From Eledone cirrhosa (taxonomy: Eukaryota), in contig OZ024745.1 of assembly GCA_964016885.1 (NCBI GenBank), positions 81,468,001-81,532,000 of the forward strand: a DNA stretch of 64,000 nt. Direction: 5' to 3'. Below the pieces are notes generated by a model. It had not been told where the DNA came from and searched no databases. It was given only the letters and a program-made list of their open reading frames with translations. Shown piece after piece: positions 18,026 to 53,805 of the stretch. The translations under genes were made by a program, and so were the position numbers. Within the stretch, counting starts at the first letter, position 1. Each line of letters opens with the position of its first letter.

Positions 18026-18244
18026 GTGTATGCGTATATGCGTATATACACGGGCGGTGGAACTGGGGCGGGGGCAAGGGGCCATTCCCCCTCGCCCAAT
18101 AATTCTATTTTTCTCCCCAAACTACCAAAAGACATAACTATTTGTATATACGCTACAATGTATGTACATGTTATGAAGAGACAGATGAGAGAGAGATATA
18201 TACATATATAGAGGAGGAGAGTTTGGTGTAAATTGATATATAAA

Positions 18245-18510
18245 TTTCTATTTATTTGCCACCAGGGTATAAAAGATTGGAACAAATACAAAGTAGGAGT
18301 TTACATACATTTAAAAAGACGTGTAAAAACATATAACAAATTAAATTTAACATTCGATGTCATCAATTGGGAGGGGGCGTTGACGTGGGGTCGCACACAC
18401 CCCCGAAAAAATGTGCAACCCTCCTCTTCAGGAGCACAAAGAGCGGGTGCTCCCTTCCTCTCCTCCTTCTTCTCCTCTCTCACCTACAGGCTGATATAGA
18501 GAGAAGGCCC
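18245..18510 (-). mobile_element. 5'-truncated Tx1 subfamily B copy (last ORF2 codons plus 3'UTR)
   Basis: Matches 18627-18891 with scattered differences; minisatellite sequence on both sides. Confidence 0.92.
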
Positions 18511-18864
18511 ATATAGAGAGGAAAGTCGGGAGAGTGTGTTGTATATTAGATATAGAGAGGGGGAGAGATTGATGTTTATTGATATAGAGAGGGGGTTGGA
18601 AGAGAGTACCCTGTAATAGATATATATTTCTATATATTTGCCACCAGGGCATCAAAGATTGGGACAAATACAAAGGGGGGAGTTTACATACATTTAAAAA
18701 GACGTGTAAAAACATATAACAAACTAAATTTAACAATCGATGTCCTCAATAGGGAGGGGCGTTGACATGGGTCGCACACACCCCCGAAAAAATGTGCAAC
18801 CCTCCTCTACAGCAGCACAAAGAGCGGGTGCTTCCTTCCTCTTCTCATTCTTCTCCTCTCTCAC

Positions 18865-21800
18865 CTACAGGCTGATATAGAGAGAAGGCCCATTCACTCG
18901 GGCCATTCTCGCTACTTTCACCCATCTTTCATAAAACTTGCTGGGGTAGAGCACCTCTCTCTCCATTCTGATCCTTCTTCTAAAGTGGTACTTGAAAAAA
19001 AAGACCAGTTGTTGGCCGTAGAGAAAGGTGTCTGACCTCAGCCCTTTCAACCTTGTACACCATACAACTTCTTTCGCCATAGCTATCACACAGAGGAAAA
19101 CCGCCTCTCCTTCGTTTTTGAATGGGGAGGCGGTTTGATTGTGACAATGTTCTCGGTGGTCAACCGGATTGGTCCCACCCGCAACAGTAGTCGTTCTACA
19201 TAGCCCCACAGGTCAGCAACGCCCGGGAAGTGTACGAATGCGTGTGCGACGGTTTCCTCGTTACGCACGCATCTTGGACAGATCTTCTTCGAGGGGTCCC
19301 TACCCGGGCGCCCGTGTCTGTAGAGCTTGTCCCGAACGGGTAGAGATCCTCGGTAACATTGCCAAGCCAGGGACTTTTGGAAGTTGTCCATCGGTCCCGG
19401 GCCAAACGTCCTACCGAACAGACTGGCCAGCTCGTCTTCCTCCATGCCCAGAGCCTCTCCGAGAGCGTCGTCGCACTTACTGCGCACCAACCCTCTATAG
19501 AATGTTGAGGTTGAGTCTCCACTGATTGCTGGATCCGCTTGCCAGAGGGCCGTGAGCGCCTGGGCACATTCAATGTGCCAGTCGCCCACTTTTCTCGGTC
19601 TTTGCTTGACCCAGGATTGCAGCTCGGTGAGTGAGACGAGTCTCGGAAAGGCTCGCCTCACAGACAGGGCCCACACCGGCTAACCGGTGAGGAATACCTG
19701 GAGGTGCCGTAGCCTTAATGCGTGTCTACGCATCGTCAGCCACGACATCCCCAGCCCTCCGTTCGAAGGGTGTTGACAGCAGATGGATCTTCTCACCAAA
19801 GGAGCCTGCTTCTTCCAAAGAAATCAGAAGAGCGCGCGCTCCATTTTGGCGAGTGTTTTCTCTGGGCAAGGCACGACGGTCAAGCGGTAGTAGATGACGG
19901 ACGCTATATAAGCGTTCGCCATCTCCGCTCGACCTTTCAGGGATAGTTTGCACTCGGCCCACTTCTGGGCGAGTGCAAAGACCTTTCCCGTTACCTCGTC
20001 CCAGTTTTTCTCCACCTGGAGGTCCGGCCGAACCAGACCCCGAGCAGCTTCACCGGTCCCTCCGTCCAGCGTCCGACGATGCCGTCGGACGGCATCGTTT
20101 TGCCCCTCCACGTCCCGAGTTGCAAACCGACGGACTTGTCTCGAGTTGCAAACCGACGGACTTGTCCCGGTTCAGCTTGGCTCCTGTGAACCTTTCATAT
20201 TCCTCCAGTAAGGTGCCGATCTGCCCGATTTCCGAGGCGCACGACACCATTACTGTCACGTCATCGGCGTAGGCCGACACCGCTTTCCGCAATCCCGGTT
20301 CCAAGGGGATGCCCTGCAACAGCTCCAGCTTCCTCAGTAGTGGCTCGAGAGCCAGCATATACAGGAGGGAGGAGAGAGGGCATCCCTGTCGGATGGATCG
20401 CGTGATTTGGAACGGCTCCGAGAGGTAGCCGTTCACCTTGACCCTCGAGCAGGTGTTGTTGCTGTGCATTGCAGCAATCCAACCTCTGAAAACGGGTCCG
20501 AAGCCTGCCGCCGCGAGCACCGCATCCAGGTACCGATGGTCAACCTTATCGAACGCTTTAGATTGATCCAAGTTGACAGGGCCCCACCAAAGCCGGGTTC
20601 GTTCCCTACCCTCTCTACGATGTATCGCAAGTGGTGGAGGTTGTCGTGTATGGACCTGGACGGGATTGCGCATGTCTGCGCTTCTCCCACCAGGTTCCCT
20701 AAGACAAGCGCCAACCTCTTCGCTAACACCTTGGCCAAAATCTTTAACTCTGTGTTTAGCAGAGTTATGGGCCTGAAGTTATCTATGTCATCCCCCTTGT
20801 TCTCGTCCTTCCTCACCAGCGTGACTACGCCCTTGGTCACAGAACTGGGAATTCTCCCGTTCTGTTGCCAGTTGCAGTAGACCGCCTCGAGGAGACCGGA
20901 GAACAAGCCCGGCATCGCTACATAAAGTTCGTATGGTAGACCATCGAGACCCGGAGATTTGCGTTTGCCGCATTGGCTCAGCGCTTCCCCTATTTCAGCG
21001 GCTGAAATCGGCCTCTCGCAGGACTTCGCCTCCCCGTCCGAGAGCCGCGCCAGACCGTCGAGATATGGACCGATATCCATGGCCCCACCCGGCCCGCCGC
21101 CGCTCCCGAACAGTCGTGCAAAGCGCCGTTGAAAGGCCGCGCTCATCCGCTCAGGTTCAAGGATCACGCGTCCATCCTGGTCCTTCAAAGACCGAATCGT
21201 GGACTTGTTTCCACTTTTTGCTTCTGTCACACGGGCCCAGCTAACAGCTTTGGCTCCCTCGTTACCCAGAGCACGTATTTTACTCCTGACAACGCAGCCC
21301 TCGTGCTTCGCATCAAAGAACTGGTCTAGGGCCGTTCTTGACGCCAGCACGCCGGCCACGTTTCCACTCCTAATCGCCTCTTCTACTCTATTTGTTAATT
21401 CCTTTTCAGTTCTATTCCTATCTGATGCTAATTCCCGACTAAAACCTATCGATTCTATTCTAATTTCTCTCTTGAGAGAGCCCCACCACCTGTTGTTGAC
21501 AATTGCCCCCGTCAAACGCTGCTTAACTAGTGTGCTAATCCGCTTACTGTAAGCTTTGTTTGTCGGTAAAGACAAGTTTAGCTTCCAGTAAACGGGTCCC
21601 TGTCTATGAGTTCTATCAAGGTTGACCACTCCGGTCAACAACTTGTGATTCGAATAGTCAACCATGAACATTCGTGGACAGCTTAATATTTCCCTATCCT
21701 TATTTCTAACTAGGATCCTATCTAAGTACGACCTGGATGTTCCGCTGCGATTACTCCACGTCCACCGTGGCACAGTCGGAAAATCCAGTCGATATCTATC

Positions 21801-22325
21801 GGCCAGATCAAATCGGCCGATTAATCGTTTGAGGCTGTTACACCCCCCTCTATCGGGACATGCCCCTACATAGTCCCAACGTGCATCCAGGATACCATTC
21901 CGGTCCCCCACTAAAAGCAAGGAGCGAGACGTTCCCAGGAAATTCTCCAGGCGTCGGAAGAAGTCCGGTCGCGGTGTCCCAGATGGGGCATACGCTGCCA
22001 CCAGCCTGAAAGCTCCACCTTCACCACTGCCGACGTCTAAAACCACCAGTCGACCCTCCGGGTCCAGGTGTACCTTCTGTGTGGCAAGACCCAGGTATTT
22101 TCGCAGCAGAACGACAACCCCACCCCCACCCCTCGGCTGACAGAGAGATGCGTAGATCTCAAAGTCGTCGAAGATGGGGGCCAGTTGGCGCTCGCTGCTG
22201 ATCCTAGACTCGCAAATAACCATTACATCCACTCTGTGCGACCTGAGGTCATTTAAGAGTTTGCCCTGTTTCCAGGATATCCCCAAGCCGCGTGCATTCA
22301 CACATCCAACTCTTATATTGGCCAT
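18865..22325 (-). pseudogene. ORF2p APE-RT-CCHC with several frameshifts and stops
   Basis: ORF pieces 20433-22325, 20050-20673, 19824-20111, 19086-19676 and 18865-19209; ~21-bp internal duplication at ~20116-20167. Confidence 0.92.
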
Positions 22326-22367
22326 GTTGGTGCTGAAGAGGTAAAAAGGAAGAGGAAAGGAAATTAC

Positions 22368-24219
22368 TTACCTCTTCGTCTCCTGGGGACCAGGCTGCAC
22401 AATTTCCATGGGGGTGTTGGAAGGGTTGTTTGGTGGGGTGGTGGTTTGTGGTGGGGTGAGGACATCAGTGTGTGGTGGGATTAGGGTGTTTGGTGGGGTG
22501 TGGGTGTCTGGTGTGTGGGTGGGGAAACATCTCAATAGGATGCTGTTATGTGGTTTGGTGCAGTTGGTCCCCACATGCATTGGATAGTTCTTTTTCAAAG
22601 TTACATAGGTTTCCGTTGGGACCCTAATCATCATTAGGTGCGGTTTGTTCGCTGCATAGGTGAAAGTGATCCCTTCGGTTTCCACCGAAGGGTTATATTC
22701 TCTCGCTTTCATCAACGTTTTATTGTTCTTGTTAATGTATGTATAGAGTTTTTGTTGTGTTGTGTTTGTTTTTGTTTGTTGTTCTTGTGCGTGTTTGCGA
22801 TTTGTAGTACGTGTTATGTTTTGGGGAGGGGTGGGTTTTTTTATTTGTGATGTTTGTTCTGTTTGTGCTGGTGGTTGTGTGTTTGTGGCATTTTTGTTAA
22901 TGTGGTGCCTTTTTGTTTCCTTTTCACCTGTTGAAAGGGTTCTTCCTCGTCGTCACTGGGTGACGTTGATACGGAGTCCTCTTCCGTGTTGTTGGGGAGG
23001 GGTATATTTTGGGGTTTTGTTGTGGTTGCTTTTGTATTTGTTTTAGGTGGGGAGGGGTTGGGTGGAACAGTGTTTTGTGTTGTTATTTTTCCGTGTTGTT
23101 GTGGTTGTTGTTGTGGTTGTTGTTGTGGTGGTGGTGGTGGTGGTGATGGTGGTGGTGGTGGTGGTGGTGGTGGTGGTGGTGGTTGTGTTGTTGCGTTGGG
23201 GGTTGGCAGAAGAGCCTTTCTTTTTTGACTCGTTAATTGAGGACAGGCAGCCCTCAGGTGACCCCTGCTTAAGCAGTGGTAACATGACGGCCGCCTTCCC
23301 TCCACTGAAATGTTTATATAAGTTATCCCGTCCAGAGGCACGCGTTGTGGGATATTCGCGATTCGTTCTGGGCTCATTTGCACCAGAACTTCTACGGTGG
23401 TCCCACCAAATACACCTCCGGAGGACTTTCCTATTGAAATTATCTTATCCTATTGAAAGTTAATGATTCCACATAGTATCCACCAAATATTTACATTTGG
23501 TGTGATACTCATGATTTTTATTCTTTGTGTCCTTTTTCCCCTGTATGTGGGGAAACAGGTGAAGCGGGACGACACAATGGGCGATACCGAGTACTTTTGA
23601 GCTGTTGACTGGTTGTTCATTAGCACCGAAATTCTACCAAACAGTTTACCTTTTTGTATGAAGGTTAAGTCCTTCATTGCATCTTTTAGAACCAGCTCAA
23701 TTTCATTTTGTGATAATTGAGCTGGTTTTCTTGTTTCGTTCGATATTGTCCTGAAAACCACAGTTTTTAGGACAGCCTTTCTACGTAATTCCTGTGGAGA
23801 ATTGATGCTAAAAGCACCGTTTTCGCCAAAAGTCACGAATTGTTTTGCGTCTTGTAATAGTTGTTTAGCATTTGTTATGTCTATTGGCGTGTATAGTTCG
23901 TTTTTTTTACAGTCTGTGCGAATGTTGTTTTGGTGTTGTCTTTTTTGTTGCTGCTGTTGTTGTCACTGTTGGTAATATTGTTCATGTTTTCCTTGGTGTT
24001 GCTATTGTTGCAGTTGTTGGTTGTGGTGTTATTGTCATTGTTCTTGTTGTTGGTGCTGGTATTATTAACCGGGTTTGGTTTCGTGGTTTCAATATTTTCA
24101 ACGTTTTTCGATAATGCGAGGGGGGAAGGCTGCAAGCTTTGTACTCCTACCTTCCCTCGACCACTTTTCTTAGCGGGCGTGGCACTCACGACAGTGTGCG
24201 AGGTTGAAATGGCATCCAT
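22368..24219 (-). pseudogene. ORF1p, frameshifted
   Basis: CYHCLSRGHLRAAC knuckle, poly-Pro from (CCA)n, C-terminus PMEIVQPGPQETKR. Confidence 0.88.
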
Positions 24220-24423
24220 TGCTGATACCAAGTCTACACAGTTTTGAGATGAAAATGAAAATTTCGCCCCAGAAAGGGGCGAAAATTTGTTGACTCAACG
24301 TCTGAAGGCCCAGGCAAGGGGTTAAACTAAACAATGCTATTAAATTGAGCAATGAACTCACAGTTTTTTTGACAATAATCCGTAAAAATCCGGAGCGAAG
24401 TAATTCACGTCTATATCAAGTGG

Positions 24424-25165
24424 TAATTGATATAGAGAGGGGTGTTGAGAGAGTGTGTTGTATATTAGATATAGAGAGGGGGAGAGATCGATGTTTATTG
24501 ATATAGAGAGGGGGTTGGAAGAGAGAACCGTGTAGTAGATATATATAGAGAGAGAGTTTGGGGTTACTTAATATAGAGATGGGGAGAGTTTGGTGTTAAT
24601 TGATATAGAGAGGGGGATTGGAAGAGAATCCCATGTAGTAGATATAGAGGGGGAGAGTTTGGTGTTACTTGATATAGAGAGAGGGATTGGAAGAGAGTCC
24701 CGTGTAGTAGATATAGAGAGAAGGAGGGTTTGGTGTTAATTTATATAGAGAGGGATATTGGAAGAACGTTCCGCGTAGTAGATATAGAGAGGGGAAGGGT
24801 TTGGTGTTACTTGATATAGAGAGGAGGATTTGAAGAGATTTGCGTGTAGTAGATATAGAGAGGGGGATTGGAAGAGAGTACCGTGTTGTAGATATAGAGA
24901 GGGGGAAATTTGGTGGTAATTAATATAGAGAGGAGGGTTGCGAGAGTCTGTTGTAGAAAGGAGAATTTAGGAGGGACTGATATACAGAGGCGGATTGGGA
25001 GAGATACGTGTAGATATTTATACAGTGTGAGAGAGTGTATTAGTCTTAGATATAGAGAGTGGGATAAGAGAGGCGGTGTCGTGGTAGAGTTTGTTTTTTG
25101 AGATACAGAGGGGGGGTTAAAAGAGAGTTTTGTGTGATAGACATAGAGAAGAGGAGCGTTTGGAA
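24424..25165. repeat. ~60-bp minisatellite made of two ~30-bp GATATAGAGAGGGG subunits
   Basis: Recurring GATATAGAGAGGGGGATTGGAAGAGAGTCCCGTGTAGTA-GATATAGAGAGGGGAGAGTTTGGTGTTAATT; also at 18190-18243, 18511-18626, 47771-48010 and 53685-53805. Confidence 0.92.
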
Positions 25166-25166
25166 T

Positions 25167-25501
25167 CACTCTCGGGTCCCAAATAATATGAGGGGTGGCA
25201 ATAATGGGTGGGGACATTTGAGAAATCAGTAATTGTAAAGTGTTCGTTCGTAAATATGGGATTTCTTGTAATGTTTTTCTTTTGTCATATATAATGTTTT
25301 TTAATGTAAAATAAAATTATTATTAGATTTTCCAGCTTCTGTATCAATATGAATCACTTACAATAACATTTCACCGGAGATAGATTAGCAAAATTTAATA
25401 AGCGGGTGGAGTGAGGTGGGACAGAAATAAAACCCTGGGTGTGGGGAATCTGACAAATTAATAAGCGGTGGGTGGGGATGAATATTCAAGACCTGAAAGT
25501 A
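25167..25501 (-). mobile_element. MITE-like repeat adjoining the minisatellite
   Basis: Imperfect inverted ends TACTTTCAGGTCTTGAATA / ATTATTTGGGACCCGAGAGT; homologous to 47405-47770 and 53806-54125. Confidence 0.75.
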
Positions 25502-25827
25502 CGTAAATTATATATAGAAGATGAATAAATTGGGTATAATACCAGTTTCTTACCAAATGCGAAGAAGCTCGATATATTAACCCCCATAGGAAAGGGCACA
25601 GAGCATAATTTTTTAAAACTATATATATACAGTGTCGGTGGAACTAGCGGGAGAAGGCATGCCCCCTCCAATAATTATATTTTCTCCCCAAACTACCAAA
25701 ACACACATCTATCTGTATATGCGCTACAATTTATGTACATGTTATGTTTATCGCATATCGAGGTTTTCTGACTATTTTCTAAAATGGTCAGAAAACTTCG
25801 TGTGCGAAGAGCTAAACTAATCACTAC

Positions 25828-26009
25828 AACCTCTAAAACCCAAACGGGGAGTACCATGAAAAAAGGGCCCCTAAGCGGGGAGAAAAGAGGAAACTGGGAG
25901 ATTTTACATAATGAAAGCTATACCCATTTTCACAAGAGAAGACGTCTCTCACCCACCGCTAAATAGGTGGGAGATCTCCCTGTCGGACGGGGCGGGTTGA
26001 CAGGTCTGG
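25828..26009 (-). mobile_element. Truncated copy of the hAT-like MITE at 35688-35862
   Basis: Reverse-complement similarity; one end TTGACAGGTCTG. Confidence 0.7.
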
Positions 26010-26038
26010 TGTGTGTGTATTTATGTGTATTATTTTAC

Positions 26039-26253
26039 ATTGGCAGTATCGGTAGAGCGTCGGACACCATGCTTCGTGGCATAGAGTTACGACCCTTTAC
26101 GTTCTGAGTTCAAATCCCGCCGAGGTTAGCTTTGCCTTTCATCCTTACGGGATCGATAAAATAAAGCACCAGTAATGCATTGGGGTCTATTTAATCGACT
26201 TTCCATTCTCCTTCAAATTGCTGACCTTGTGTCTAAATCAGAAACTATTATTT
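26039..26253 (+). mobile_element. tRNA-SINE, long variant
   Basis: Boxes A and B plus family core. Confidence 0.88.
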
Positions 26254-26544
26254 TACAGCTTACGAAACAAATAGATGAACTACAATATTATTTAAATGCC
26301 CTTTAAATAATATTATTTGTAGAGAAAACAACAACTAAATGTTGAGATATCTGTATTTCATTTTATTGTGTTTAGTTGAGTTCATGCCCTACAGATGTGA
26401 ATCATTAAGAGAAATGAATATCACACTGGATATTGACCTAGGAATAGATTCTGCGCAATAGGAAACTTTTGTTTGTCTTAAAAAATACTTCCACTTCAGT
26501 TGAATTGAGAAACTTAAATTTAACTCCGTATAAATCTATCTATG

Positions 26545-27444: not shown

Positions 27445-27861
27445 CGGTTTTCCTCTGTATAGTGGTAAAAACGATTATATGGTAGACGAGATTGAGAGGA
27501 CTGAGGACAGATGCCTTTCTCTCCGGACAACAACTCATTCCCTTCTTTAGGTACCACTTCAGAAGGAGAATCAGAGTGGAGAGAGAAGCACTACACCCCA
27601 GTAAATTTACTGAAAGGTGGGTGAATGTATCAAAAATGGCCCGAGTGATTGGGCCTTCTCTGTATATAAACCTATAGGTTGAAGATGAGAGCAAAAGGAG
27701 GAAAGAAGCATTTTCACAACACGCTCCTGGAGTTGAGGGTTGTTCTATCGACGGGGTATTAAACAACCCATTTGTAACGCCTCCCCCCTATTGGGGATTT
27801 CGATTGTTAAATTTGCTTGTTTTAATAATATTTTTACACGATTGTATGTAAAATCCCCGGC
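27445..27861 (+). mobile_element. Tx1 subfamily C 3' fragment fused to the 5' side of copy 3
   Basis: Matches ~33087-33498 but lacks the last ~50 nt of the tail. Confidence 0.9.
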
Positions 27862-27881
27862 AAATTTTGCCAACTATAAAA

Positions 27882-28192
27882 CATGAATAACCCGGAAAGA
27901 ACGCAGGAGAACGTCGACAGAGAGAAGAGGGTAGAAAGGCAGATATTAACGCTATATCTGCTTCTGCCACTATGAACGTCGCCATGGATACGACTGTCAA
28001 CAAAGAGAAAAATATAATATTACCACTTAAACATTTAAAAATTTCTACCGTCGAAGTGGAGAAAAATAACACACAGGAAAACACAGGAATTAAACCTATT
28101 AATATACATACGCATGAAAAAGACAACGACAACAACTCCATAGATACACCTCGTCAAGAAATTGCGATTTCCAACACCGAGGCTGACAACAA

Positions 28193-28227
<35 letters not shown>

Positions 28228-29867
28228 CAAAAATGTCTTTCGCTGAAACAGTGAACAAAAAACGAGATTTTATAAATCTTGACATCTCCAATGCAAGAGA
28301 TATGTTCCAACAAGGAAAAAAATTTGTAACTTTCGAAGACAAGGGTGGGTTTAGAATCAACTCATCCCTCGAAATAAAAGAAGAGACGGTTCGAAGGACA
28401 GTGACCTTCAGGACTGTCTCAAACACAACGAGAAAGCCAATATTTGTGAGTCAAGGAGACATAGAAGCCACCTTGAAGGAGACTCTAGAAAATATTGACT
28501 TTCTTCAACGAGGAAAACAGTACGGAAGTATTTCCGTACTGTTTAAAAGCGAGGCACTCGCCCAAAAACATTCTGTGACTCCAATGGTGTCAAAAGCTTT
28601 TTCCCTACGTACATGGAAAAAATAAAAATAAAAAAGTACCACCAAACATTAACATCTGGTGGATCTTGGCTGGCTTCGTGGAGCCAGAGACTGTTGCCAT
28701 TCTTTCGATACGAAAGTCGATTAGACAAAGGTGGGCGGGTACTGATTTGGAAATTCTGATGCAGATGAGGCCGGAGAGAATCTCCAAAATACCCGGGCGG
28801 GTACTGATTTTGAGATTCCGATGCAGATGAGGCTGGAGAGAATCTCCAAAATACCCGGGCTGGTACTGATTTTGAGATTCTGATGCAGATGAGGCCGGAG
28901 AGAATCTCCAAAATACCCGAAAAAGTCGTCATCGACGACAACAACAAAATAAACATTTCGGTGGAGGGGTGTAAACTTCATTGCTTTCACTGTGGTAGCG
29001 CAACATACCTAAAGGCCTCCTGCCCTTTACAAACACGATCAACCAAAACAATACAAAAGAAAGCACTGTTACCAACACCAACACCACAGCAACAACAACT
29101 CACGAAACAAGCAAACACACCAAAACAAACAGCCACTCAACCAACAACAACAGAAAAAACACAGACAACACCCCTGAAGAACACAGCCCCACCCCATCCC
29201 ACTCCATCAAACACACACATCGAAACACCACCACCACACAACATACCCCTACCCCACACTCCTGACGATGATTATTCATCCACAGCTGAGGCTGCTTCCC
29301 CTCCTTTAAGTGAAGAAGGAGAGCCTCGGAAATCTAAAAAAACAAAAAAGAGACACCACAAAAACCCCAAAACTCCAATCACCAACACCAACACACAACC
29401 ACAGACACAAACAACAACATAAACAACAACACAAACAACACCACAGTCAAACATCCCCCTACCAGCAAAACCAACACCAACACAACCCCAAACGCAAGCA
29501 CCTACCATAAAAAGAAAACCCCCGGACGAACAACAAACTAAAACAACACAACAAAAACACAAACAAAAATACGCATACATCAACACAAACAACAAGAGTT
29601 TGGTGGAGGTCATCTCCCAAAACCCCAAGGTGGAGACGGAGGGGAAAACTTTCGTCAAAGCAGAATCGTCTCCACACCTTACACTTATAAGGGTTTCTAT
29701 GGAGACCTATAGTGACCTGGAAAATAAATTATCGCAGGACGTGGGAAACAACTGTCAGAAAACCCATCAACCGCGTCCTGTTAAAATGTTTTCCCACCCC
29801 ACCCAACACCCCCTCCAGCACCCAAATGGAGATTGAACAACCCGATCTCCAGGAAACGAAAAGATAA
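27882..29867 (+). pseudogene. ORF1p, disrupted
   Basis: CFHCGSATYLKASC (knuckle His lost); C-terminus MEIEQPDLQETKR; 62-bp triplication at 28733-28918. Confidence 0.85.
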
Positions 29868-29909
29868 GTGCACATTTTCGTCCTTTTTCTCCAACTCTTC
29901 TTCACCAAC

Positions 29910-32900
29910 ATGGCTAGTTTACGAGCTGGAAGCGTGAATGTGCGTGGCCTAGGGATGCCCTGGAAACAGGGCCAACTATTAAACGACCTTAGGTCACACG
30001 GTATGTATGTGATAGCCATCACCGAGTCCAGGATCAACAACAGGCAGCAACTAACCCCCATCTTCGACGACTTTGAGATCTACGCATCTCTCTGTCAGCC
30101 AGGAGATGGAGGGGAGTGGCTGTCATGTTTCGGAAGAACTTGGACGTCGAAGTACAGCAAGTACACTTGGACCCGGAGGGTAGACTGGTAGTCCTAGATG
30201 TGAACAGTATTGAAGGTGGAGCCTTCAGACTGGTGGCCGTTTATACCCCGACCGGGCAATCGCAATCACGGCCTGACTTCTTTAAGCGTCTAGAGTCTTT
30301 TCTGGGAACATCTCGCTCCTTACTTTTAGTAGGGGACTGGAATGGTATCCTAGATACACGATGGGACTATGTGGGAACATGTCCCAGTAGAGGGGGGTGC
30401 AACAGCCTCACAACTTTAATTGGACAATTCCAACTGGCCGATAGGTATCGACTGGATTTCCCGACTGCACCACAGTGGATGTGGGCAAACCGCAGCGGGA
30501 CATCTAGATCGTATTTAGATAGGTTCTTCATTAGAGAAAGGGACAAGGAGATGTTAAATTGTCCACGAATGCACATGGTTGCCTACTCAGATCACAAATT
30601 AGTCATCTGCTTAGTCAACTGTGATAGAATGCATAGACAGGGACCCGGATACTGGAAGCTCAACGTGTCGTTGCCGGCACGTAAAGCTTACAGTGAACGA
30701 ATAAGTAGACTAGTCAAGCCATCGTCAACAATAGATGGTGATACTCTCTCAAGAAAGCAATTAGAGTAGAATCGATAGAGTTTAGCAGAGAGTTAGCCTT
30801 AGAGAAAAACAAAATAAAAAGAGAACTAGTAGCCAAAGTAGTGGAGGCACTTAGAAGTGGCAACGCGGCTAGAGTGTTAGCGTCGAGAACGGCACTAGAC
30901 CAGTTTTTCGAAGGCTGCGTGGTCAGAAGCAAAACACGTGCTCTAGGAAACGAAGGAGCGAAAGCTGTCAGCTGGGCCCGAGTGGTGGAGGCAAAAAGTG
31001 GCAACAAGTCCACGATTCGGTCTTTGAAAGACCAAACGGACGCATGCTACTTGACCCCAAGCGAATGTGCGCGGCCTTTCAGCAGCACTTTGCGCGACTG
31101 TTTGAGCAGAACGACGGTGAGCCGAACGGGGCAATGGACTTTAGTTCATACCTCGACGGCTTGCCGCGTCTCTCGAACACGGGCGCCGAGTTCTGGGAAA
31201 GACCGATCACGGACACTTAGATACGGGACGCTCTGAGCCACTGCGGCAAACGCAAGTCACCCGATCTAGATGGTCTACCCTATGAGTTTTACATAGGCAT
31301 GCCGAACTTGTTCTCTGGCGTCCTCGAGGCCGTCTACTGCAATTGGCAGCAGAACAGGAGAATTCCAAGTTCTGCAGGCAAGGGCGTAGTAACGCTGATC
31401 AGGAAAGACGAGAACAAGGGGGACGAAATTAACAACTTCAGGCCCCTAACTCTGCTCAACACAGAGTTAAAGATTTTGGCCAAGGTGCTAGCGACGAAGT
31501 TGGCGGTTGTCGTCGAGAACCTGGTAGGGAAAGCGCAAACGTGTGCAATCCCGACCAGGTCCATACACGACAAGCTCCACCTCATGCGATACATCATAGA
31601 GAGGGTGGGCAGTTAACCCGGCTTCGGTGGGGCTCTGAGCAATGTGGATCAGTCTAAGGCAGTCAATAGGGCCGACCATCGATACTTGGAAGCGGTTCTC
31701 AAGGCAGCCGGTTTCGGTCCCGTTTTCAGAGGCTGGATCGAGGCGATGCACACCAGCATCTGCTCGAGAGTCAAGGTGAACGGCTACCTATCTGAGCCGT
31801 TCGCAATCACGCGTTCCATTCGACAGGGATGCCCTCTCTCCTCCATTATGTATGTATTGACTCTAGAGCCACTACTGCGGAAATTGGAGCTGTTGCAGGA
31901 CACCCCTCTAGAACCGGGACTGCGCAAAGCGGCGTCGGCTTATGCCGACGACGTGACGGTAATGGTGTCGAGCACCTCGGAAATCGGGGTGATCGGCAAC
32001 TTACTGAAAGAATACGAAACGCTGACGGGAGCAAAACTAAACCCGGAAAGTCTGTCGGTTTGCAACTCGGTACGTGGAGAGGCAAACCGATGACGTCCGA
32101 CAGCGTCGTTGGACGCTGGACGGAGGGACCGGTGAAATTGCTCCGGGTCTGGTTCGGTTCAGACCTCCAGGTGGAGAAAAACTGGAACGAGGTAACGGCC
32201 AAGGTGTTTGCGCTCACCCAGAAGTGGGCAGAGTGCAAACTGTCCTTGAAAGGTCGAGCGGAGGGGGCGAACACTTTCATAGCGTCCGTCATCTCTACCG
32301 CTTGACTGTCGTGCCTTGTCCCCGTGAACACCTCGCCAAGATGGAACGCATGCTCTTCCAGTTTCTGTGGAAGAAGCAGACTCCGCTGGTGAGGAGATCC
32401 GTCTGCCGTCAGCACCCTTCCAGCGGAGGGCTGGGAATGCCGTGGCTGATGATGCGCAAACATGCGCTGAGGCTGCGGCATCTCCAGGTATTCCTCACCT
32501 ACCCCCGACCGGTGTGGGCACCGTTTATGAGACAGGCTTTCCCACAGCTCGTCTCGCTGACGGAGCTGCAGTCATGGGGGAAGAAAAGACCGAAAACGAT
32601 GGGCGCCTGGCACATTGAATGCGCTCAGACGCTCACAGTCCTCTGGCAAGCGGGCGCAGCAATCAGTGGAGACTCTACTTCGACATTCTATAGAGGGATT
32701 GTACGTTACAAGGGCGACGACGTGCTCGGGGAGACCCTGGGCGTCGAAGACGATGAGCTCACCAGTCTGTTTGGTAGGACTCTCCGCCCGGGATCTATGG
32801 ACAGCTACCAGATGTCCCTGGCCTGGCAGTGCTACTGAGGAGCTCTACCACTTCGAGACAAGATCTACAGGCACGGACGCCCCGGCAGGGATCCTTCCAA

Positions 32901-33317
32901 GAGGACGTGTCCAAGATGCGCGCAGGACATTGAAACAGTCCTGCACGCAATTGTACACTGCCCGGGCGTAATCGACCTGTGGAACTATGCAGAACAACTG
33001 CTGTCGCGTATGGGACAAATCCAGTTGACTGCCGAGTCCATAGTAAGGATCAAACTGCCAGCCTCTTTCAAAAACGAAAGAGAGGCGCTTTTCCTCTGTA
33101 CAGTGGCTATGGTGAAAGAAGTTATATGGTGGACGAGATGGAGAGGACTGAGGACAGATGCCTTTCTCTTCGGACAACAATTGATTCCCTTCTTTAAGTA
33201 TCACTTTAGAAGGAGAATCAGAGAGAGGCACTGCACCCCAGTAAATTTACTGAAAGGTGGGTGAATCTGGCAAAAATGGCCTGAGTGATTGGGCCTTCTC
33301 TGTTTATAAGTCTGTAG
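29910..33317 (+). pseudogene. ORF2p APE-RT-CCHC with many frameshifts and stops
   Basis: VNVRGL, GDWN, SDH, QGCPLS, YADD and CPRC..HC motifs spread over ORF fragments. Confidence 0.92.
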
Positions 33318-33659
33318 GTTAAAGAAGAGAGCAAAAGGAAGAAAGGAGCACTTGCACAACACGCTCCTGAAGTTGAGGGTTGTTCTATCGACGGGGTATT
33401 AAACAACCCATTTGTGGCGCTTCCCTCCTATTGGGGATTTCGATTGCTATAATTGTTTGTTTTACATTTTTTACACGACTGTATGTAAAATCCCCGGCAT
33501 GTCTTTGTATTGTCCCCTTTTCTTGTGCGCCCTTGTGGCAAATAAATAAATCTATCTATCTATCTATCGGTTTGTCTGTCTGCCTATCTATCTAACTGTC
33601 TATTTATCTTCTGTTTGTCTGTCTCTCTCTATGTACACATACACACGCGCGCTCGCGTG

Positions 33660-35253: not shown

Positions 35254-35359
35254 GAATACATTCAAATAAATTAAAACTATTTTTTTCATTTCATTTCATT
35301 AATCTTGTGTTCTAATTTAATAGGCACGAATTAGCTATATGTAATTTATTAATTTAAAT

Positions 35360-40281: not shown

Positions 40282-40282
40282 C

Positions 40283-43734: not shown

Positions 43735-43736
<2 letters not shown>

Positions 43737-44736
43737 TACGATTTCACAGAACTTACGTTCACCGAATTCACAGACTAGATCCCTTCTTCCTCCCGTTAGA
43801 CCTGTACGGAATTCCTTCCTTGCTCACATTCCAACCAGGTTTGATGGTCTTTATTCTCTCTCGTTCACGATTTCACCGAATTTATATTCATGGAAATTTG
43901 GGACTTGACTCCTTCTTCCTCACTTTTCGTTGCTTCACCATCTTTGTTTGTTTACACTCTCGTGTCCCCTTTATTTACGTGTCCCAACGACTTTTTTTAG
44001 CCGTTGCTCGCACCAACCGGAGGTATATGGTCTTTAAAGCGATGAAATATCAATGATGGTTGGAAGATCACTGATGAAGGACTAACTTTATTCATATGTA
44101 ACCCATTAACAACCACGCAGCACGTTTATACTCATATTTACACATATTTTTTACCCCGCTATGACCCGTCTATTTCGTTCTTACTGCTTCCTCTTTCTCT
44201 GTATCTTTACCCTCTCTAACAATCACTCTCTCTGTTAGCCTCTTCCTCACCCTTCACTCACTCATTCTCTGTTACTACCTCTCCTCCTCCTCCTCCTTCT
44301 TCCCGTTTGACCTGTGCGTAATTCTTTTCTTTCGCACCCTTGTTCAGGCAGGTCGCTTTTTTTCTCTCTCTCGTCTACGATTTCACAGAACTCACGTTCA
44401 CCGAATTCACAGACTAGATCCCTTCTTCCTCCCGTTAGACCTGTACGGAATTCCTTCCTTGCTCACATTCCAACCAGGTTTGATGGTCTTTATTCTCTCT
44501 CGTTCACGATTTCACCGAATTTATATTCATGGAAATTTGAGACTTGACTCCTTCTTCCTTACTTTTCGTTGCTTCACCATCTTTGTTTGTTTACACTCTC
44601 GTGTCCCCTTTATTTACGTGTCCCAACGACTTTTTTTAGCTGTTGCTCGCACCAACCGGAGGTATATGGTCTTTAAAGCGATGAAATACCAATGATGGTT
44701 GGAAGATCACTGATGAAGGACTAACTTTATTCATAT
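43735..44736. repeat. Partial tandem repeat (period ~639) between (TA)n tracts, pLTR-like
   Basis: 43735-44097 nearly identical to 44374-44736. Confidence 0.85.
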
Positions 44737-44752
44737 ATATATATATATATAT

Positions 44753-46095: not shown

Positions 46096-46163
<68 letters not shown>

Positions 46164-46182
46164 CATACATACATATATATAT

Positions 46183-46309
<127 letters not shown>

Positions 46310-46715: not shown

Positions 46716-46859
46716 CATATATATATATATGCAAAATTGAAAAAGTGGAGAATAACATGGTCAACAGTACAAAAAAGGGGATTTATTTACAGTTTAATTT
46801 ACAGTCATCTACGTAAACCTCTTATTGAGTCAAACAAAGCCGTACGCTAAAACTATCCA

Positions 46860-47130
46860 TAATTGTTTCTACGTTTGGTACAAGGCCAGCAATTACCCAG
46901 TGCATTACTGGTACTTTATTTTATCGATCCCGTAAGGATGAAAGGCAAAGTTAACCTCGGCGGGATTTGAACTCAGAATGGCAAGGGCCGTAACTCTATG
47001 CGTCAAAGCATGGCGTCCGACCCTCTACTGCCAATCCACCGCCCTATTGTAATAATTGTTTCTACTTTTTGGCACAAGGCCAGCAATTACCCAGTACATT
47101 ACTGGTACTTTATTTTATCGACCCCGTAAG
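46860..47130 (-). mobile_element. tRNA-SINE (46860-47045) plus partial second copy (47052-47130)
   Basis: Family core. Confidence 0.88.
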
Positions 47131-47269
47131 GCTAAGAAGTATTCACAACCTCTAGCTGGATTACCTATAACGATATTTTGTTATCCTTATATATATATGC
47201 ATTCATTTATTATGGCTATTGGTGAGTTATGTTACACTAAAGTTTCACCTGCGCACTCACAGGATCACC

Positions 47270-47324
47270 AGCCTTGTCTGATGGCCCTGTGAGTACGCAG
47301 GTGAAACTCCAGAGTAACAAGGCT
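47270..47324 (+). ncRNA. Hammerhead (A9->G core variant) at the apex of palindrome 47208-47341
   Basis: AGCCTTGT-CTGATGG-C-CCTGTG(AGTA)CGCAGG-T-GAAAC-TCCAGA-GTA^ACAAGGCT. Confidence 0.75.
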
Positions 47325-47404
47325 CACCAATAGCCATAATATATGAAAATTTAAACTCTACTTCCATATTGAGTTTTCATTCTTACGTCCGTCAATAATT
47401 CACG

Positions 47405-47770
47405 TACTCTCAGGTCTTGAATAATGCGTCCCCCCCTCCTCCAGTTTATTAATTTATTAGACCCCCCCAGCCCCGCCCCGCACATTTTCATTCCACCCCT
47501 CCTCGCTTATTAAATTTACTAATCTATCTCCGGCGAAATTTTATTTTATCATAAAGTGATTCATATTGATACAGCAGCAGGAGAACCTAATAATAATTTT
47601 ATTTTACATTAAAAATACTTTATATATGACAAAAGAACATTACAAGAAATCCCATATTTACGAACGTATACTATACAGTTACCGATTCCCCATCCCATGC
47701 TTATAAAAATTTAAGCAAATGTCACCCACTGCTTGTTCCAACCCCTCCTATTTTTTGGGACTCGAGAGTA
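47405..47770 (+). mobile_element. MITE-like repeat preceding the minisatellite
   Basis: Ends TACTCTCAGGTCTTGAATAAT / ATTTTTTGGGACTCGAGAGTA (TA-flanked, Tc1/mariner-like). Confidence 0.78.
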
Positions 47771-48010
47771 CCACCAAACTCCCCTCCTCTCTATGTCTAT
47801 GACATAACACTCTCTTTTAATACCCCTCTCTATATACATCCACCAAATTTCCCCCTCTCTTTATCTAACACTAACATACCCACCCCCTCTATATCTACTT
47901 CACGGAACTCTCTTCCAATCCCCCTCTCTATATCAATTAACACCAAACTCTCCCCCTCTCTATATCTACTACACGGAACTCTCTTCCAACTCCCATCTCT
48001 ATATCAATTA
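47771..48010. repeat. Same ~60-bp minisatellite; resumes at 53685-53805
   Basis: CCCCTCTCTATATC subunits. Confidence 0.9.
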
Positions 48011-48211
48011 CCACTTGATATAGACGTGATTTACTTTGCTCCGGATTTTTACGGATTGTTGTAAAAAAAAACTGTGAGTTTATTGATCAATTTAATAACA
48101 TTGTTTGGTTTAGCGCCTTGCCTTGGCCGTCAGACGTTAAGTCAACAAATTTTCGCCACTTTCTGGGGCAAAATTTTCAATTTTCATCTAAAAACTGTAG
48201 ACTTGGTGGCA

Positions 48212-49978
48212 ATGGATGCCATTTCCACCTCGCACACTGTCGCAAGTGCCACGCCCACTAAGAAAAGTGGTGGAGGGAAGGTAGGAGTACAAAGCTTGCA
48301 GCCGTCCCCCCTCGTATCATCGAAAAACGTTGAAAATATCGAAACCGCGAAACGAAACCCGGTAAATAATACCAGCACCAACAACAAGAACGATGACAAC
48401 AACACCACAACCAACAACTGCAACAATAGCAACACCAATATTACCAACAGTGACAGTAACACGAAAGACAACAACACCAAAACAACATTTGCACAGACCG
48501 TAAAAAAAAACGAACTATACACGCCAATAGACATAACAAATGCTAAACAACTATTACAAGACGCAAAACAATTCGTGACTTTTGGCGAAAACGGTGCTTT
48601 TAGCATCAATTCTCCACAGGAATTACGTAGAGGGGCTGTCCTGAAAACTGTGGTTTTCAGGACAATATCGAACGTAACAAGAAAACCAGCTCAATTATCA
48701 CAAAATGAAATTGAGCTGGTTCTAAAAGACGCAATGAAGGACTTAACCTTCATACAAAAAGGTAAACTGTTTGGTAGCATTTCCGTGCTGATGAACAACC
48801 ATTCAACAGCTCAAAAGTACTCGATAGCACCCATTGTGTCGTCCCGCTTCACCTTTTACCCCACATACAAGGGAAAAAGGACACAAAGAATAAAAATCAT
48901 GAGTATCACACCAAATGTAAACATTTGGTGGATACTATGTGGAATAATAAACTTTGACGAAGACAAGATAATTTCAATAGGAAAGTCCTCCGGAGGTGTA
49001 TTTGGTGGGACCAGCGTAGAAGTTCTGGTGCAAATGAGCCCAGAACGAATAGCGAATATCCCACAACGCGTGCCTCTGGACGGGATAACTTATATAAACA
49101 TTTCAGTGGAGGGAAGGCAGCCGTCATGTTACCACTGCTTAAGCAGGGGTCACCTGAGGGCTGCCTGTCCTCAATTAACGAGTAAAAAAAAAAATCTCTT
49201 CTGCCAACCCCCAACACAACAACACAACCACCACCACCACCACCACAACAACACGGAAAAATAACAACACAAAACACTGTTCCACCTAACCCCTCCCCAC
49301 CTAAAACAAATACAAAAGCAACCACAACAAAACCCCAAAATATACCCCTCCCCAACAACACGGAAGAGGACTCCGTATCAACGTCACCCAGTGACGACGA
49401 GGGAGAACCCTATAAACAGGTGAAAAGGAAACAAAAAGGCACCACATTAACAAAAATGCCACAAACACACAACCACCAGCACAAACAGAACAAACATCAC
49501 AAATAAAAAACCCACCCCTCCCCAAAACATAACACGTACTACAAAACGCAAACACGCGCAAGAACAACAAACAAAAACAAACTCAACACAACAAAAACTC
49601 TATACATACATTAACAAGAACAATAAAACGTTGATGAAAGCGATAGAAAATAACCCTTCGGTGGAAACCGAAGAGATCACTTTCACCTACGCAGCGAACA
49701 AACCGCACCTAATGATGATTAGGGTCCCAACGGAAACCTATGTAACTTTGAAAAAGAACCATCCAATGCATGTGGGGACCAACTGCACCAAACCACATAA
49801 CAGCGTCCTATTGAGATGTTTCCCCACCCCCACACCAGACACCCACACCCCACCAAACACCCTAATCCCACCACACACTGATGTCCTCACCCCACCACAA
49901 ACCACCACCCCACCAAACAACCCTTCCAACACCCCCATGGAAATTGTGCAGCCTGGTCCCCAGGTGACCAAGAGGTAA
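48212..49978 (+). pseudogene. ORF1p with frameshifts in homopolymer runs
   Basis: CYHCLSRGHLRAAC; C-terminal piece 49631-49978. Confidence 0.88.
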
Positions 49979-50020
49979 GTAATTTCCTTTCCTCTTCCTT
50001 TTTACCTCTTCAGCACCAAC

Positions 50021-53000
50021 ATGGCCAGTATAAGAGTTGGATGTGTGAATGCACGCGGCCTGGAAACAGGGAAAACTCTTAATTGACCTCAGGTCGCACA
50101 GAGTGGATGTAATGGTTATTTGCGAGTCTAGGATCAGCAGCGAGCGCCAACTGGCCCCCATCTTCGACAACTTTGAGATCTACGCATCTCTCTGTCAGCC
50201 GAGGGGTGGGGTGGGGTTGTCGTTCTGCTGCGAAAATACCTGGGTCTTGCCACACAGAAGGTACACCTGGACCCGGAGGGTCGACTGGTGGTTTTAGACG
50301 TCGGCAGTGGTGAAGGTGGAGCTTTCAGGCTGGTGGCAGCGTATGCCCCATCTGGGACACCGCGACCGGACTTCTTCCGACGCCTGGAGAATTTCCTGGG
50401 AACGTCTCGCTCCTTGCTTTTAGTGGGGGACTGGAATGGTATCCTGGATGCACGTTGGGACTATGTAGGGGCATGTGCCGATAGAGGGGGGTGTAACAGC
50501 CTCAAACGATTAATCAGCCGATTTGATCTGGCCGATAGATATCGACTAGATTTTCCGACTGTGCCACTGTGGACGTGGACTAATCTCAGCGGAACATCTA
50601 GGTCGTACCTAGATAGGTTCCTAGTTAGAAATAAGGATAGGGACATATTAAGCTGTCCACGAATGTTCATGGTTGACTATTCGGATCACAAGTTGTTGAC
50701 CGGAGTGGTCAACCTTGATAGAACTCATAGACAGGGACCCGTTTACTGGAAGCTAAACTTGTCTTTACCGACAAACAAAGCTTACAGTAAGCGGATTAGC
50801 ACACTAGTTAAGCAGCGTTTGATGGGGGCAATTGTCAACAGCAGGTGGTGGGGCTCTCTCAAGAGAGAAATTAGAATAGAATCGATAGGTTTTAGTCGGG
50901 AATTAGCATCAGATAGGAATAGAACTGAAAGGGAATTAATAAATAGAGTACAAGAGGCGATTAGGAGTGGCAACGTGGCCGGGGTGCTGGCGTCAAGAAC
51001 GGCCCTAGACCAGTTCTTTGATGCGAAGCACGAGGGCTGCGTTGTCAGGAGTAAAATACGTGCTCTGGGTAACGAGGGAGCCAAAGCTGTTAGCTGGGCC
51101 CGTGTGACAGAAGCAAAAAGTGGAAACAAGTCCACGATTCGGTCTTTGAAGGACCAGGATGGACGCGTGATCCTTGAACCTGAGCGGATGAGCGCGGCCT
51201 TTCAACGGCGCTTTGCACGACTGTTCGGGAGGGGCGGCGGGCCGGGTGGGGCCCTGGAATTCGGTCCATACCTCGACGGTCTGGCGCGGCTCTCGTACGG
51301 GGAGGCGAAGTCCTGCGAGGGGCCGATTTCAGCCGCTGAAATAGGGGAAGCGCTGAGCCAATGCGGCAAATGCAAATCTCCGGGTCTCGATGATCTACCA
51401 TACGAACTTTATGTAGCGATGCCGGGCTTGTTCTCCGGTCTCCTCGAGGCGGTCTACTGCAACTGGCAACAGAACGGGAGAATTCCCAGTTCTGTGACCA
51501 AGGGCGTAGTCACGCTGGTGAGGAAGGACGAGAACAAGGGGGATGACATAGATAACTTCAGGCCCATAACTCTGCTAAACACAGAGTTAAAAATTTTGGC
51601 CAAGGTGTTAGCGAAGAGGTTGGCGCTTGTCGTCGGGAACCTGGTGGGAGAAGCGCAGACATGCGCAATCCCGTCCAGGTCAATTCACGACAACCTCCAC
51701 TTCATGCGATACATCGTAGAGAGTGTATGGAACGAACCCGGCTTTGGTGGGGCACTGATCAACTTGGATCAATCTAAGGCGTTCGATAGGGTTGACCATC
51801 GGTACCTGGATGCGGTGCTCGCGGCGGCAGGCTTCGGACCCGTTTTCAGAGGTTGGATTGCTGCAATGCACAGCAGCAACACCTGCTCGAGGGTCAAGGT
51901 GAACGGCTACCTCTCGGAGCCGTTCCAAATCACGCGATCCATCCGACAGGGATGCCCTCTCTCCTCCCTCCTGTATATGCTGGCTCTCGAGCCACTACTG
52001 AGGAAGCTGGAGCTGTTGCAGGGCATCCCGTTGGAACCGGGATTGCGGAAAGCGGTGTCGGCCTACGCCGATGACGTGACAGTAATCGTGTCGTGCGCCT
52101 CGGAAATCGGGCAGATCGGCACCTTACTGGAGGAATATGAAAGGTTCACAGGAGCCAAGCTGAACCGGGACAAGTCCGTCGGTTTGCAACTCGGGACGTG
52201 GAGGGGAAAAACGATGCCCTCCGACGGCATCGTCGGACGCTGGACGGAGGGACCGGTGAAGCTGCTCGGGGTCTGGTTCGGCCGGACCTCCAGGTGGAGA
52301 AAAACTGGGACGAGGTAACGGGAAAGGTCTTTGCACTCGCCCAGAAGTGGGCCGAGTGCAAACTATCCCTGAAAGGTCGAGCGGAGATGGCGAACGCTTA
52401 TATAGCGTCCGTCATCTACTACCGCTTGACCGTCGTGCCTTGCCCAGAGAAAACACTCGCCAAAATGGAGCGCGCGCTCTTCCGATTTCTTTGGAAGAAG
52501 CGGGCTCCTTTGGTGAGAAGATCCATCTGCTGTCAACACCCTTCGAACGGAGGGCTGGGGATGTCGTGGCTGACGATGCGTAGACACGCATTAAGGCTAC
52601 GGCACCTCCAGGTATTCCTCACCGGTTAGCCGGTGTGGGCCCTGTCTGTGAGGCGAGCCTTTCCGAGACTCGTCTCACTCACCGAGCTGCAATCCTGGGT
52701 CAAGCAAAGACCGAGAAAAGTGGGCGACTGGCACATTGAATGTGCCCAGGCGCTCACGGCCCTCTGGCAAGCGGATCCGGCAATCAGTGGAGACTCAACC
52801 TCAACATTCTATAGAGGGTTGGTGCGCAGTAAGTGCGACGACGCTCTCGGAGAGGCTCTGGGCATGGAGGAAGACGAGCTGGCCAGTCTGTTCGGTAGGA
52901 CGTTTGGCCCGGGACCGATGGACAACTTCCAAAAGTCCCTGGCTTGGCAATGTTTCCGAGGATCTCTACCCGTTCGGGACAAGCTCTACAGACACGGGCG

Positions 53001-53445
53001 CCCGGGTAGGGACCCCTCGAAGAAGATCTGTCCGAGATGCGTGCGTGACGAGGAAACCGTCGCACACGCATTCGTACACTGCCCGGGCGTTGCTGACCTG
53101 TGGGGCTATGTGGAACGACTACTGTCGCGGGTGGGACCAATCCGGTTGACCACCGAGAACATTGTCACGATCAAACCGCCTCCCCCATTCAAAAACAAAG
53201 GAGAGGCGGTTTTCCTCTGTGTGATAGCTATGGCGAAAGAAGTTGTATGGTGGACAAGGTTGAAAGGGTTGAGGTCAGACACCTTTCTCTCCGGCCAACA
53301 ACTGGTCTTTTTTTTCAAGTACCACTTTAGAAGAAGGATCAGAATGGAGAGAGAGGTGCTCTACCCCAGCAAGTTTTATGAAAGATGGGTGAAAGTAGCG
53401 AGAATGGCCCAAGTGAATGGGCCTTCTCTCTATATCAGCCTGTAG
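50021..53445 (+). pseudogene. ORF2p APE-RT-CCHC, disrupted
   Basis: 676-aa core ORF; small deletion at ~50058, frameshifts at ~50205 and ~52282, TAG at 52627. Confidence 0.93.
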
Positions 53446-53805
53446 GTGAGAGAGGAGAAGAATGAGAAGAGGAAGGAAGCACCCGCTCTTTGTGCTGCTG
53501 TAGAGGAGGGTTGCACATTTTTTCGGGGGTGTGTGCGACCCATGTCAACGCCCCTCCCTATTGAGGACATCGATTGTTAAATTTAATTTGTTATATGTGT
53601 TTTACACGTCTTTTTAAATGTATGTAAACTCCCCTCTTTGTATTTGTCCCAATCTTTGATGCCCTGGTGGCAAATAAATAGAAATATATATCTACTACAC
53701 GGTACTCTTCCAAATCCTCATCTCTATATCCATTAACACTAAACTCTCCCCCTCTTTATATCTACCATGACACTATCTCTCTCTCAATGCCTCTCCCTCT
53801 ATCAA

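Follow-up and report, generated by a model that had tools for sequence, protein, structure and literature searches.

The locus

The stretch of DNA analysed here, called the window throughout, comprises 64,000 nucleotides of Eledone cirrhosa (assembly GCA_964016885.1, contig OZ024745.1, positions 81,468,001 to 81,532,000 of the forward strand) and lies within a 135-Mb contig of a 3.0-Gb genome. It carries four long, related long interspersed nuclear elements (LINEs), two belonging to a subfamily termed B and one each to the sister families A and C, together with one truncated B copy. A reading of the letters alone (the sequence-only reading) had placed three B insertions in one and the same minisatellite, and this was borne out with the extents given below. 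The choice of target by subfamily B is the subject of this report. APE denotes the apurinic/apyrimidinic endonuclease domain, RT the reverse transcriptase domain, ORF an open reading frame, UTR an untranslated region and DPE a downstream promoter element.

18627..24439, minus strand: full-length LINE of subfamily B1; frames broken; APE, RT and zf-RVT in pieces of ORF2
47995..53684, plus strand: full-length LINE of subfamily B1; frames broken
18245..18512, minus strand: 5'-truncated B copy, 93% identical to other B copies, with its breakpoint beside the internal target-like motif
53426..53436, plus strand: internal target-like motif of the element, close to the ORF2 stop
376..6205, minus strand: LINE of sister family A at a (TATC)n-type site, with a ~19-bp duplication and a DPE-like motif at 6178, lacking a target leader
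27863..33549 (start approximate), plus strand: sister family C LINE, 5' UTR lost, 3' end in (TATC)n

Families A and C are 77-80% alike to B. The two full-length B copies are 97% alike (157 substitutions in 5,668 aligned bases) and have 26 derived sites in common along their length (other pairs: median 1, maximum 30); they represent one sub-lineage, or one is the parent of the other, and are still separate insertions. A segmental duplication of the two loci was rejected, since their flanks are only 71-87% alike, and this only in cassette parts (see below) or common repeats, against 97% for the LINEs; different satellite units precede the two 5' ends. Reading frames are broken in all three B copies of the window; an intact ORF2 of 1145 amino acids is present in a copy outside it (L098). 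Three truncated copies break within ~15 bases or less of B's internal target-like motif.

Target specificity at the 3' end

The minisatellite has a period of 71 bp (Tandem Repeats Finder), not the ~60 bp of the sequence-only reading, and is a dimer of 39- and 32-bp units. Every unit ends in a pyrimidine run plus TATATC, and variant units stand in an ordered set within the arrays. Each of the 30 top matches of the B 3' UTR runs through a short TA-rich tail into TATATC or a near variant and then into units that differ from match to match; two of the 30 run into unique sequence and three into other repeat types. Genome-wide, an exact 23-mer of the 3' end has 607 copies, 299 of them followed by the motif in the B fashion. 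Among 119 distinct ends not belonging to D, a further sister, eight positions spanning tail and motif are nearly fixed, after which the units differ.

A position-ordered sample was drawn from 59 of the first 62 3' ends, leaving out one inverted pair and one further locus. Copies were classed by identity and by 13 diagnostic columns; the columns were derived from groups assigned beforehand, so that the identities serve as the independent check. The 3' end lies in an array of the minisatellite in 36 of the 37 B copies (31 by a script threshold and 5 by eye at the array's last units, with 1 exception), whereas 20 of the 22 copies of older sisters end in (TATC)n microsatellites. Sites rich in (TATC)n were also found at nearly all of 30 5' ends of family A. 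The B figure lies above the level of >20% of flanks of one type that marks target preference in Tx1 families (PMC4494074). Subfamily B almost certainly targets this minisatellite, and the proposal of a sequence-specific, Tx1-like family parasitising it stands, the 3' flanks being related both in the 30 best matches and in the sample.

A 10-mer of the target motif has 43,869 genomic copies, with the cassette present at only 5 of the first 100; being mostly outside arrays, the 10-mer is too common to explain the array bias. A 12-mer, with 9,060 copies against 1,274 for its reversed control, could do so; by locus, 3 of 16 early loci are cassettes. Either B reads a motif of ~12 bases or it uses RNA pairing, and nothing points to the neighbouring miniature inverted-repeat transposable element (MITE) being read.

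A tree built on the final 1.3 kb (59 rows; 4 rows, short or self-matching, having been dropped) needs a single change of target, with weak support. B is likely to have moved to the minisatellite from the (TATC)n microsatellites of its sisters. A possible intermediate of this switch is L126 (G000:C1 near 80.68 Mb), a sister copy with a B-like tail start and with 4 B and 9 D diagnostic sites. Its head has one base in common with that of the variant B2 (see below), and its site is a (TATC)n patch beside a second minisatellite.

B also enters a second minisatellite, related to the first and with the same unit end (L019/L020 (= L325/L326), L076/L077, L210-L214); L325 and L326 form a duplicated pair with identical junctions. 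At L196/L197 (G000:C1 17.22 Mb), a long 31-bp satellite holds dozens of 10-mer target motifs, with no B sequence within the 3 kb examined.

The composite cassette

Each array belongs to a cassette of ~2 kb whose modules follow in fixed order: outer element, linker, palindrome, linker, MITE, array, end motif and right half of the outer element. The outer ends are 14-bp terminal inverted repeats, and the sequences beyond them are unrelated from locus to locus. The parts found in the window are the following.

24440..25166, minus strand: minisatellite array 5' of the first full copy, 39+32 dimer with ordered variant units
18513..18626, minus strand: three satellite units between two B copies, 92% identical to the three units that precede the full copy on its 5' side (a 115-bp duplication with 10 mismatches)
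18178..18244, minus strand: last satellite unit and array end motif
18049..18177, minus strand: outer element, right half, including the right terminal inverted repeat of the cassette
25167..25501, minus strand: MITE copy 1, with terminal inverted repeats; TA flanks in solo copies
25515..25900, minus strand: upstream cassette modules (outer element with its left end lost, linker)
47204..47404, plus strand: palindromic cassette module and linker
47405..47770, plus strand: MITE copy 2
47771..47994, plus strand: minisatellite array 5' of the second full copy
53685..53808, plus strand: minisatellite units 3' of the second full copy
53813..54088, plus strand: MITE copy 3, partial, followed by the left end of the outer element at 54127

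The MITE is short, has terminal inverted repeats and TA flanks, and occurs as solo copies in unrelated sites; we take it to be Tc1/mariner-like. A 28-mer of it has 266 exact matches. In the first 30 copies, an array follows in 11, a cassette context without an array is seen in 1, and 18 lie outside the cassette, which led us to reject the MITE as carrier of the satellite. The sequence-only reading had the array directly after the MITE. This is so for both 5' arrays of the window but not in general: only 12 of 20 full-length B copies have the MITE directly before their 5' array. Likewise, its MITE-plus-minisatellite cassette is right in that the array sits in a cassette, one with inverted repeats of its own, and wrong in making the MITE a partner: the same upstream modules recur in 9 of the 11 loci where the MITE precedes an array, indicating that the MITE is one old nested insertion.

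The earlier observation that arrays and MITEs are more diverged than the LINEs holds: cassette modules have medians of 5.3-9.7% from the commonest base, compared with 1.0-3.2% (median 1.6) for B; D copies range from 2.5 to 5.7%. Our preferred account includes, with fair confidence, an earlier spread of the array inside an older composite, non-autonomous DNA element, with the MITE as passenger. The satellite as part of the LINE, or as a 3' transduction, was rejected on the grounds that the flanks differ in unit and are older.

B occupies half of the arrays or more (17/25, 8/11 and at least 15/30 by coordinate match, 20 of these 30 being settled; the samples overlap). Such occupancy, and the existence of two duplicated pairs (L019/L020, L076/L077), might suggest that B did not target the repeat but hitchhiked with a copied cassette or segment that already contained it. 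This explanation is largely refuted and retains only a marginal chance. Insertions are found at many different units, divergence is three to six times higher in cassette parts than in B, empty cassettes exist, tandem insertions lie one or a few units apart (in the window and at L100), and the flanks of the two window loci have the low identity given above.

The 140-bp palindromic module (47204-47345) may be another small inverted-repeat element. CA-rich and TG-rich tracts at 17713-18045, with the look of an inverted duplication, adjoin the right end of the cassette.

The 5' leader and the register of insertion

The majority of B insertions span the whole element (31 of 37 in the position-ordered sample). 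Exact 17-mers of the B1 head number 260, close to the count of 3' ends; D keeps many 5' ends too. The heads of the two window copies, and the motif that follows each, lie as follows.

24413..24439, minus strand: 27-base 5' head of the first full copy; ~20-base satellite-like leader and the second arm of a 10-bp hairpin
47995..48021, plus strand: 27-base 5' head of the second full copy; satellite-like leader and hairpin
24406..24412, minus strand: putative DPE-like motif of the AGACG class; its position is +28 with the head taken to start at 24439
48022..48028, plus strand: putative DPE-like motif at +28

In each of the 30 best-matching 5' ends, variable satellite gives way to ~20 near-invariant, satellite-like bases. 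The exact leader 20-mer is found at 44 of 67 5' junctions but in only 16 of 145 native units of that type, and it is present whichever unit begins the 3' flank. From this enrichment and this independence it follows that the leader very probably belongs to the element. The junction phase of the sequence-only reading needs amending on this account: its letters are found in both long copies, but its 5' boundary was misplaced, the bases on both sides of it being element leader and not target site.

The position of the leader relative to the units was followed in 50 B1 copies with both ends, 48 of which could be typed at the 5' junction. The long unit precedes the 5' junction in 41 of the 48, and the natural successor of this unit matches the leader; at the 3' ends, the successor unit comes first in only 18 of 50 (p=5e-7 against the 5' bias). 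The variant B2, represented by 11 copies, has a leader from the other unit type. Here, typed by eye, the long unit precedes the junction in 1 of 11 and the short unit in 10 of 11 (B1 against B2, p=3e-6), and the 3' ends are mixed (6 and 3 of 9). Some copies are accompanied by duplications of whole units, of 38, 45, 49 or 115 bases. Family A, which is without a leader, has ragged 5' junctions. Taken together, the junction sequences suggest that annealing of the leader sets the 5' junction, which we regard as probable.

Uniform junctions and shifted registers might instead post-date insertion, as products of gene conversion between copies and of unequal exchange within arrays. Later deletions are indeed common, the two window copies have their 26 derived sites in common, and the 10 mismatches in the 115-bp duplication are more than the age of the LINE predicts. 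The bases just upstream of the leader vary freely among loci, however, and unequal exchange offers no reason for a bias that is leader-specific and confined to the 5' side, which makes this a very improbable alternative.

It might also be argued that the endonuclease alone reads a motif of at least ~12 bases found mostly in the minisatellite, the leader being a passive remnant and the register reflecting, for example, a preference in second-strand cleavage. Consistent with this, ~86% of the exact 12-mer copies are in excess of the reversed background, the second repeat type with the same motif is also entered by B, 13 of the 31 ORF2 differences between B and D fall in endonuclease residues 1-128, and the targets of TRAS1 and SART1 move when endonucleases are swapped (PMC1919474). 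For the 3' end, such a view is compatible with the explanation we favour. As a complete account it is unlikely: B1 and B2, both with B-like endonuclease starts, show opposite, leader-matching 5' registers; whole-unit duplications are left unexplained; and the Tx1L and TRAS1 endonucleases read ~10 bp (PMC1919474), a length at which the motif is mostly outside arrays.

Annealing of the leader remains the preferred explanation for the 5' junction, and the length of the leader bears on its source. LINEs with an APE make target-site duplications of 10-20 bp (PMC6895275), and one of ~19 bp is seen at family A in the window; in full-length B copies the leader masks any such duplication. The part of the leader beyond the pyrimidine run has the length of the target-site duplication of a truncated copy, suggesting that the leader originated as a target-site duplication.

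Start site

An AGACG/AGATG-type motif is common to the heads of A, B1, B2 and D and to one further head; 5' heads of the older sisters L254-L262 were looked for and not found. With the motif of family A set at +28, conservation begins at 0/+1 (83% and 97%, against 47% at -1; n=30). DPE motifs lie at +28 to +32 in jockey, Doc, G, I, F, SART1, TRAS1 and L1Tc (PMC4748587). If the motif of B and D is likewise at +28, their +1 falls in target-derived sequence. From these positions, a DPE promoter seems moderately probable.

An alternative is that B has no internal promoter and would be co-transcribed from the cassette, its 5' end being made by RNA processing at the terminal hairpin, in the manner of the ribozyme-released R2. 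A 5' hairpin that closes at one shared, conserved motif is possible in the heads of A, D and B1, all B copies have a single orientation in the cassette, and flank-driven transcription has been proposed for SINEU/Tx1-Mar (PMC4494074). A known ribozyme at the B 5' end was rejected for want of an Rfam match: no family reached the gathering threshold in the window, a search that can miss divergent ribozymes. The hairpin loop of B is too short for a core of the hepatitis delta virus (HDV) type. These two points, and the fit of the exact +28 spacing in family A and of the CGTG motif to known LINE promoters, render RNA processing an improbable origin of the 5' end.

Proteins and classification

ORF2 contains the Pfam domains PF03372 (APE), PF00078 (RT) and PF13966 (zf-RVT). 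A CCHC zinc knuckle, a feature of the Tx1 clade, was seen by eye in ORF1, which has no Pfam match. Among named proteins, the one closest to ORF2 comes from Argonauta hians (67% over the RT region). ORF2 scores 201-335 bits with seven fish proteins that carry the names TX1, YTX2 or pol-like, compared with 165 bits for human L1 ORF2p. In a quick tree, built without an outgroup or reference Tx1L and Keno, ORF2 groups with Argonauta outside the fish clade, with support of 100. A search of the ESM Atlas gave only generic RT clusters, which carry no family names. B is likely a young LINE of Tx1 type. A large group of proteins (P0006-P0092), 44-55% identical to B over the RT region, is sister to the octopod clade.

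Between B and D, ORF2 shows 31 residue differences, of which 13 fall in endonuclease residues 1-128 and none in residues 131-240, which align with the grafted hairpin loop of PDB 2V0S. A beta-hairpin region of this kind has been linked to target specificity (PMC1919474). ORF1 is much more different between B and D (~70-80%), which hints at an exchange of 5' halves between B and D, though it could also reflect fast evolution of ORF1.

Comparison with known systems

Tx1 families are often target-specific, as the sequence-only reading stated, with piggyBac, Mariner, Harbinger and LTR elements, microsatellites and satellites among their targets (PMC4494074). The nearest parallels are Tx1L of Xenopus, which lies in Tx1D, a non-autonomous piggyBac, and is an APE LINE within an older non-autonomous DNA element, as B may be, and the crocodilian Tx1-Mar and Tx1-9_AMi, found in Mariner-N4_AMi and Harbinger elements, hosts of the same type. 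Tandem insertions occur in these as in B, and hitchhiking was excluded in the same way (PMC4494074). Unlike Tx1L and Tx1-Mar as described in that text, B enters a repeated motif in an internal minisatellite, at any unit, has a target-like leader, and forms a clade of its own with Argonauta. Satellite-targeting Tx1 families, which appear as 'Sat' in the legend to Fig. 3 of PMC4494074, fall in the same target category, a comparison made by label alone.

Kibi in (TC)n, Koshi in (TTC)n and the crocodilian (TTCC)n and (TTTC)n families occupy pyrimidine-rich simple repeats (PMC3812793, PMC4494074), as A, C and D do in (TATC)n; none of the microsatellite targets given for Tx1 families in the available text of PMC3812793 is (TATC)n. 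B is unlike Kibi and Koshi in that it is not found in (TC)n or (TTC)n and has left the microsatellite. It is also only 24-31% identical to the named fish proteins and falls outside their clade; we presume that BAC82603/5/9 are the Koshi and Kibi proteins.

R2 offers a parallel at the other end. When its RNA keeps upstream 28S sequence the 5' junctions are uniform, and without such sequence they are variable (PMC3774820). Here too a target-derived 5' end goes with uniform junctions (B1, B2, D) and its lack with variable ones (A), judged in our case from DNA. R2, in the material available, has a restriction-like endonuclease, a host promoter and an HDV-like ribozyme; B has an APE and a likely internal DPE promoter. 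The DPE promoters of jockey, Doc, G, I, F, SART1, TRAS1 and L1Tc have a CGTG-type motif at +28 to +32 (PMC4748587), which the putative motif of B and D resembles; B and D would differ from them, as far as that text describes them, in that bases +1 to ~+20 are target-derived. Tx1 families that target transposons and satellites are thus already known. No description of this family, of the target switch or of an exchangeable leader was found in the literature searched, in which subscription papers were thinly covered and Repbase/Dfam lay outside the comparison.

Proposed mechanism

As a whole, the explanation we favour, with reasonable but by no means full confidence, is that B sits at the TATATC of the minisatellite, likely switched there from (TATC)n, and has a leader that likely anneals to the target. 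Transcription would start 27 bases upstream of the DPE-like motif, giving an RNA that begins with target-derived bases. The APE would nick the GA-rich strand at or within the TATATC of any unit, a position given directly by the 3' junctions, although the chemistry is conjectural; the TA-rich tail of the RNA would then pair at the nick and prime reverse transcription. The second strand would be cut ~15-20 bases downstream, as seen in a few truncated copies. The register bias suggests that the leader complementary DNA would next pair with the nearest matching unit, giving a 5' junction that does not vary and, often, the loss or duplication of whole units. The leader itself may derive from the target-site duplication of a master copy, with at least two separate captures (B1 and B2).

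Several observations weigh against parts of this account. A single origin of the satellite-targeting group has weak support (45/98). The first 11 bases of the leader are no more conserved than in native units, and unit types were assigned by a rough score for B1 and by eye for B2. Among ~30 truncated copies examined, duplications of 15-22 bp are clear in 4 (plus 1 by eye), and most of the others look like later deletions. The start site of B is placed only by analogy with A, the start of the RNA being deduced from DNA, and the B head folds into its 10-bp hairpin too, which permits another reading. The beta-hairpin region linked to specificity is identical in B and D. No clear target-site duplication was seen at the cassette ends (15 loci listed), and the placement of B among Tx1-type LINEs is based on scores, with no outgroup.

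It is conceivable, but not something on which we would rely, that an APE LINE lineage has been caught changing its target, from (TATC)n to the minisatellite, with 31 changes in ORF2 and the specificity hairpin unchanged, and that it was helped in this by a fixed promoter spacing, which makes master copies transcribe their own target-site duplication. If so, the leader would act at the 5' junction as an RNA guide that can be exchanged, and every full-length insertion would rebuild its own promoter with target bases. How APE LINEs gain or change targets and how they close 5' junctions are open general questions, for which this system provides natural contrasts: B against D (near-identical proteins, different targets), B1 against B2 (two leaders, opposite registers), and A as a leaderless control. 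A LINE able to locate some thousands of sites in 3 Gb, mostly with full-length insertion, is also of interest for targeted gene insertion.

Other features of the window

A fragment of a C-type LINE 3' end (27445-27862) is joined directly to ORF1 of copy C, as if tandem copies had lost their junction. Tandem repeats of 62 and 84 bases lie in ORF1 regions of the sister copies C (28733-28919) and A (4758-4932), and a 41-bp tandem repeat in 8 copies occupies 6434-6762, 230 bases upstream of copy A. Dispersed repeats of ~190 bp, 75-91% alike, are found at 8546-8737, 11780-12007, 14083-14283, 26028-26254, 35358-35553, 39386-39609, 46859-47131, 58288-58743 and 59041-59237; they presumably resemble octopus short interspersed nuclear elements. 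A 366-bp direct duplication, 98% identical, is present at 43735-44100 and 44374-44739. An open frame of 311 codons at 10048-10983 runs across an AT microsatellite, has no Pfam match and is likely spurious.

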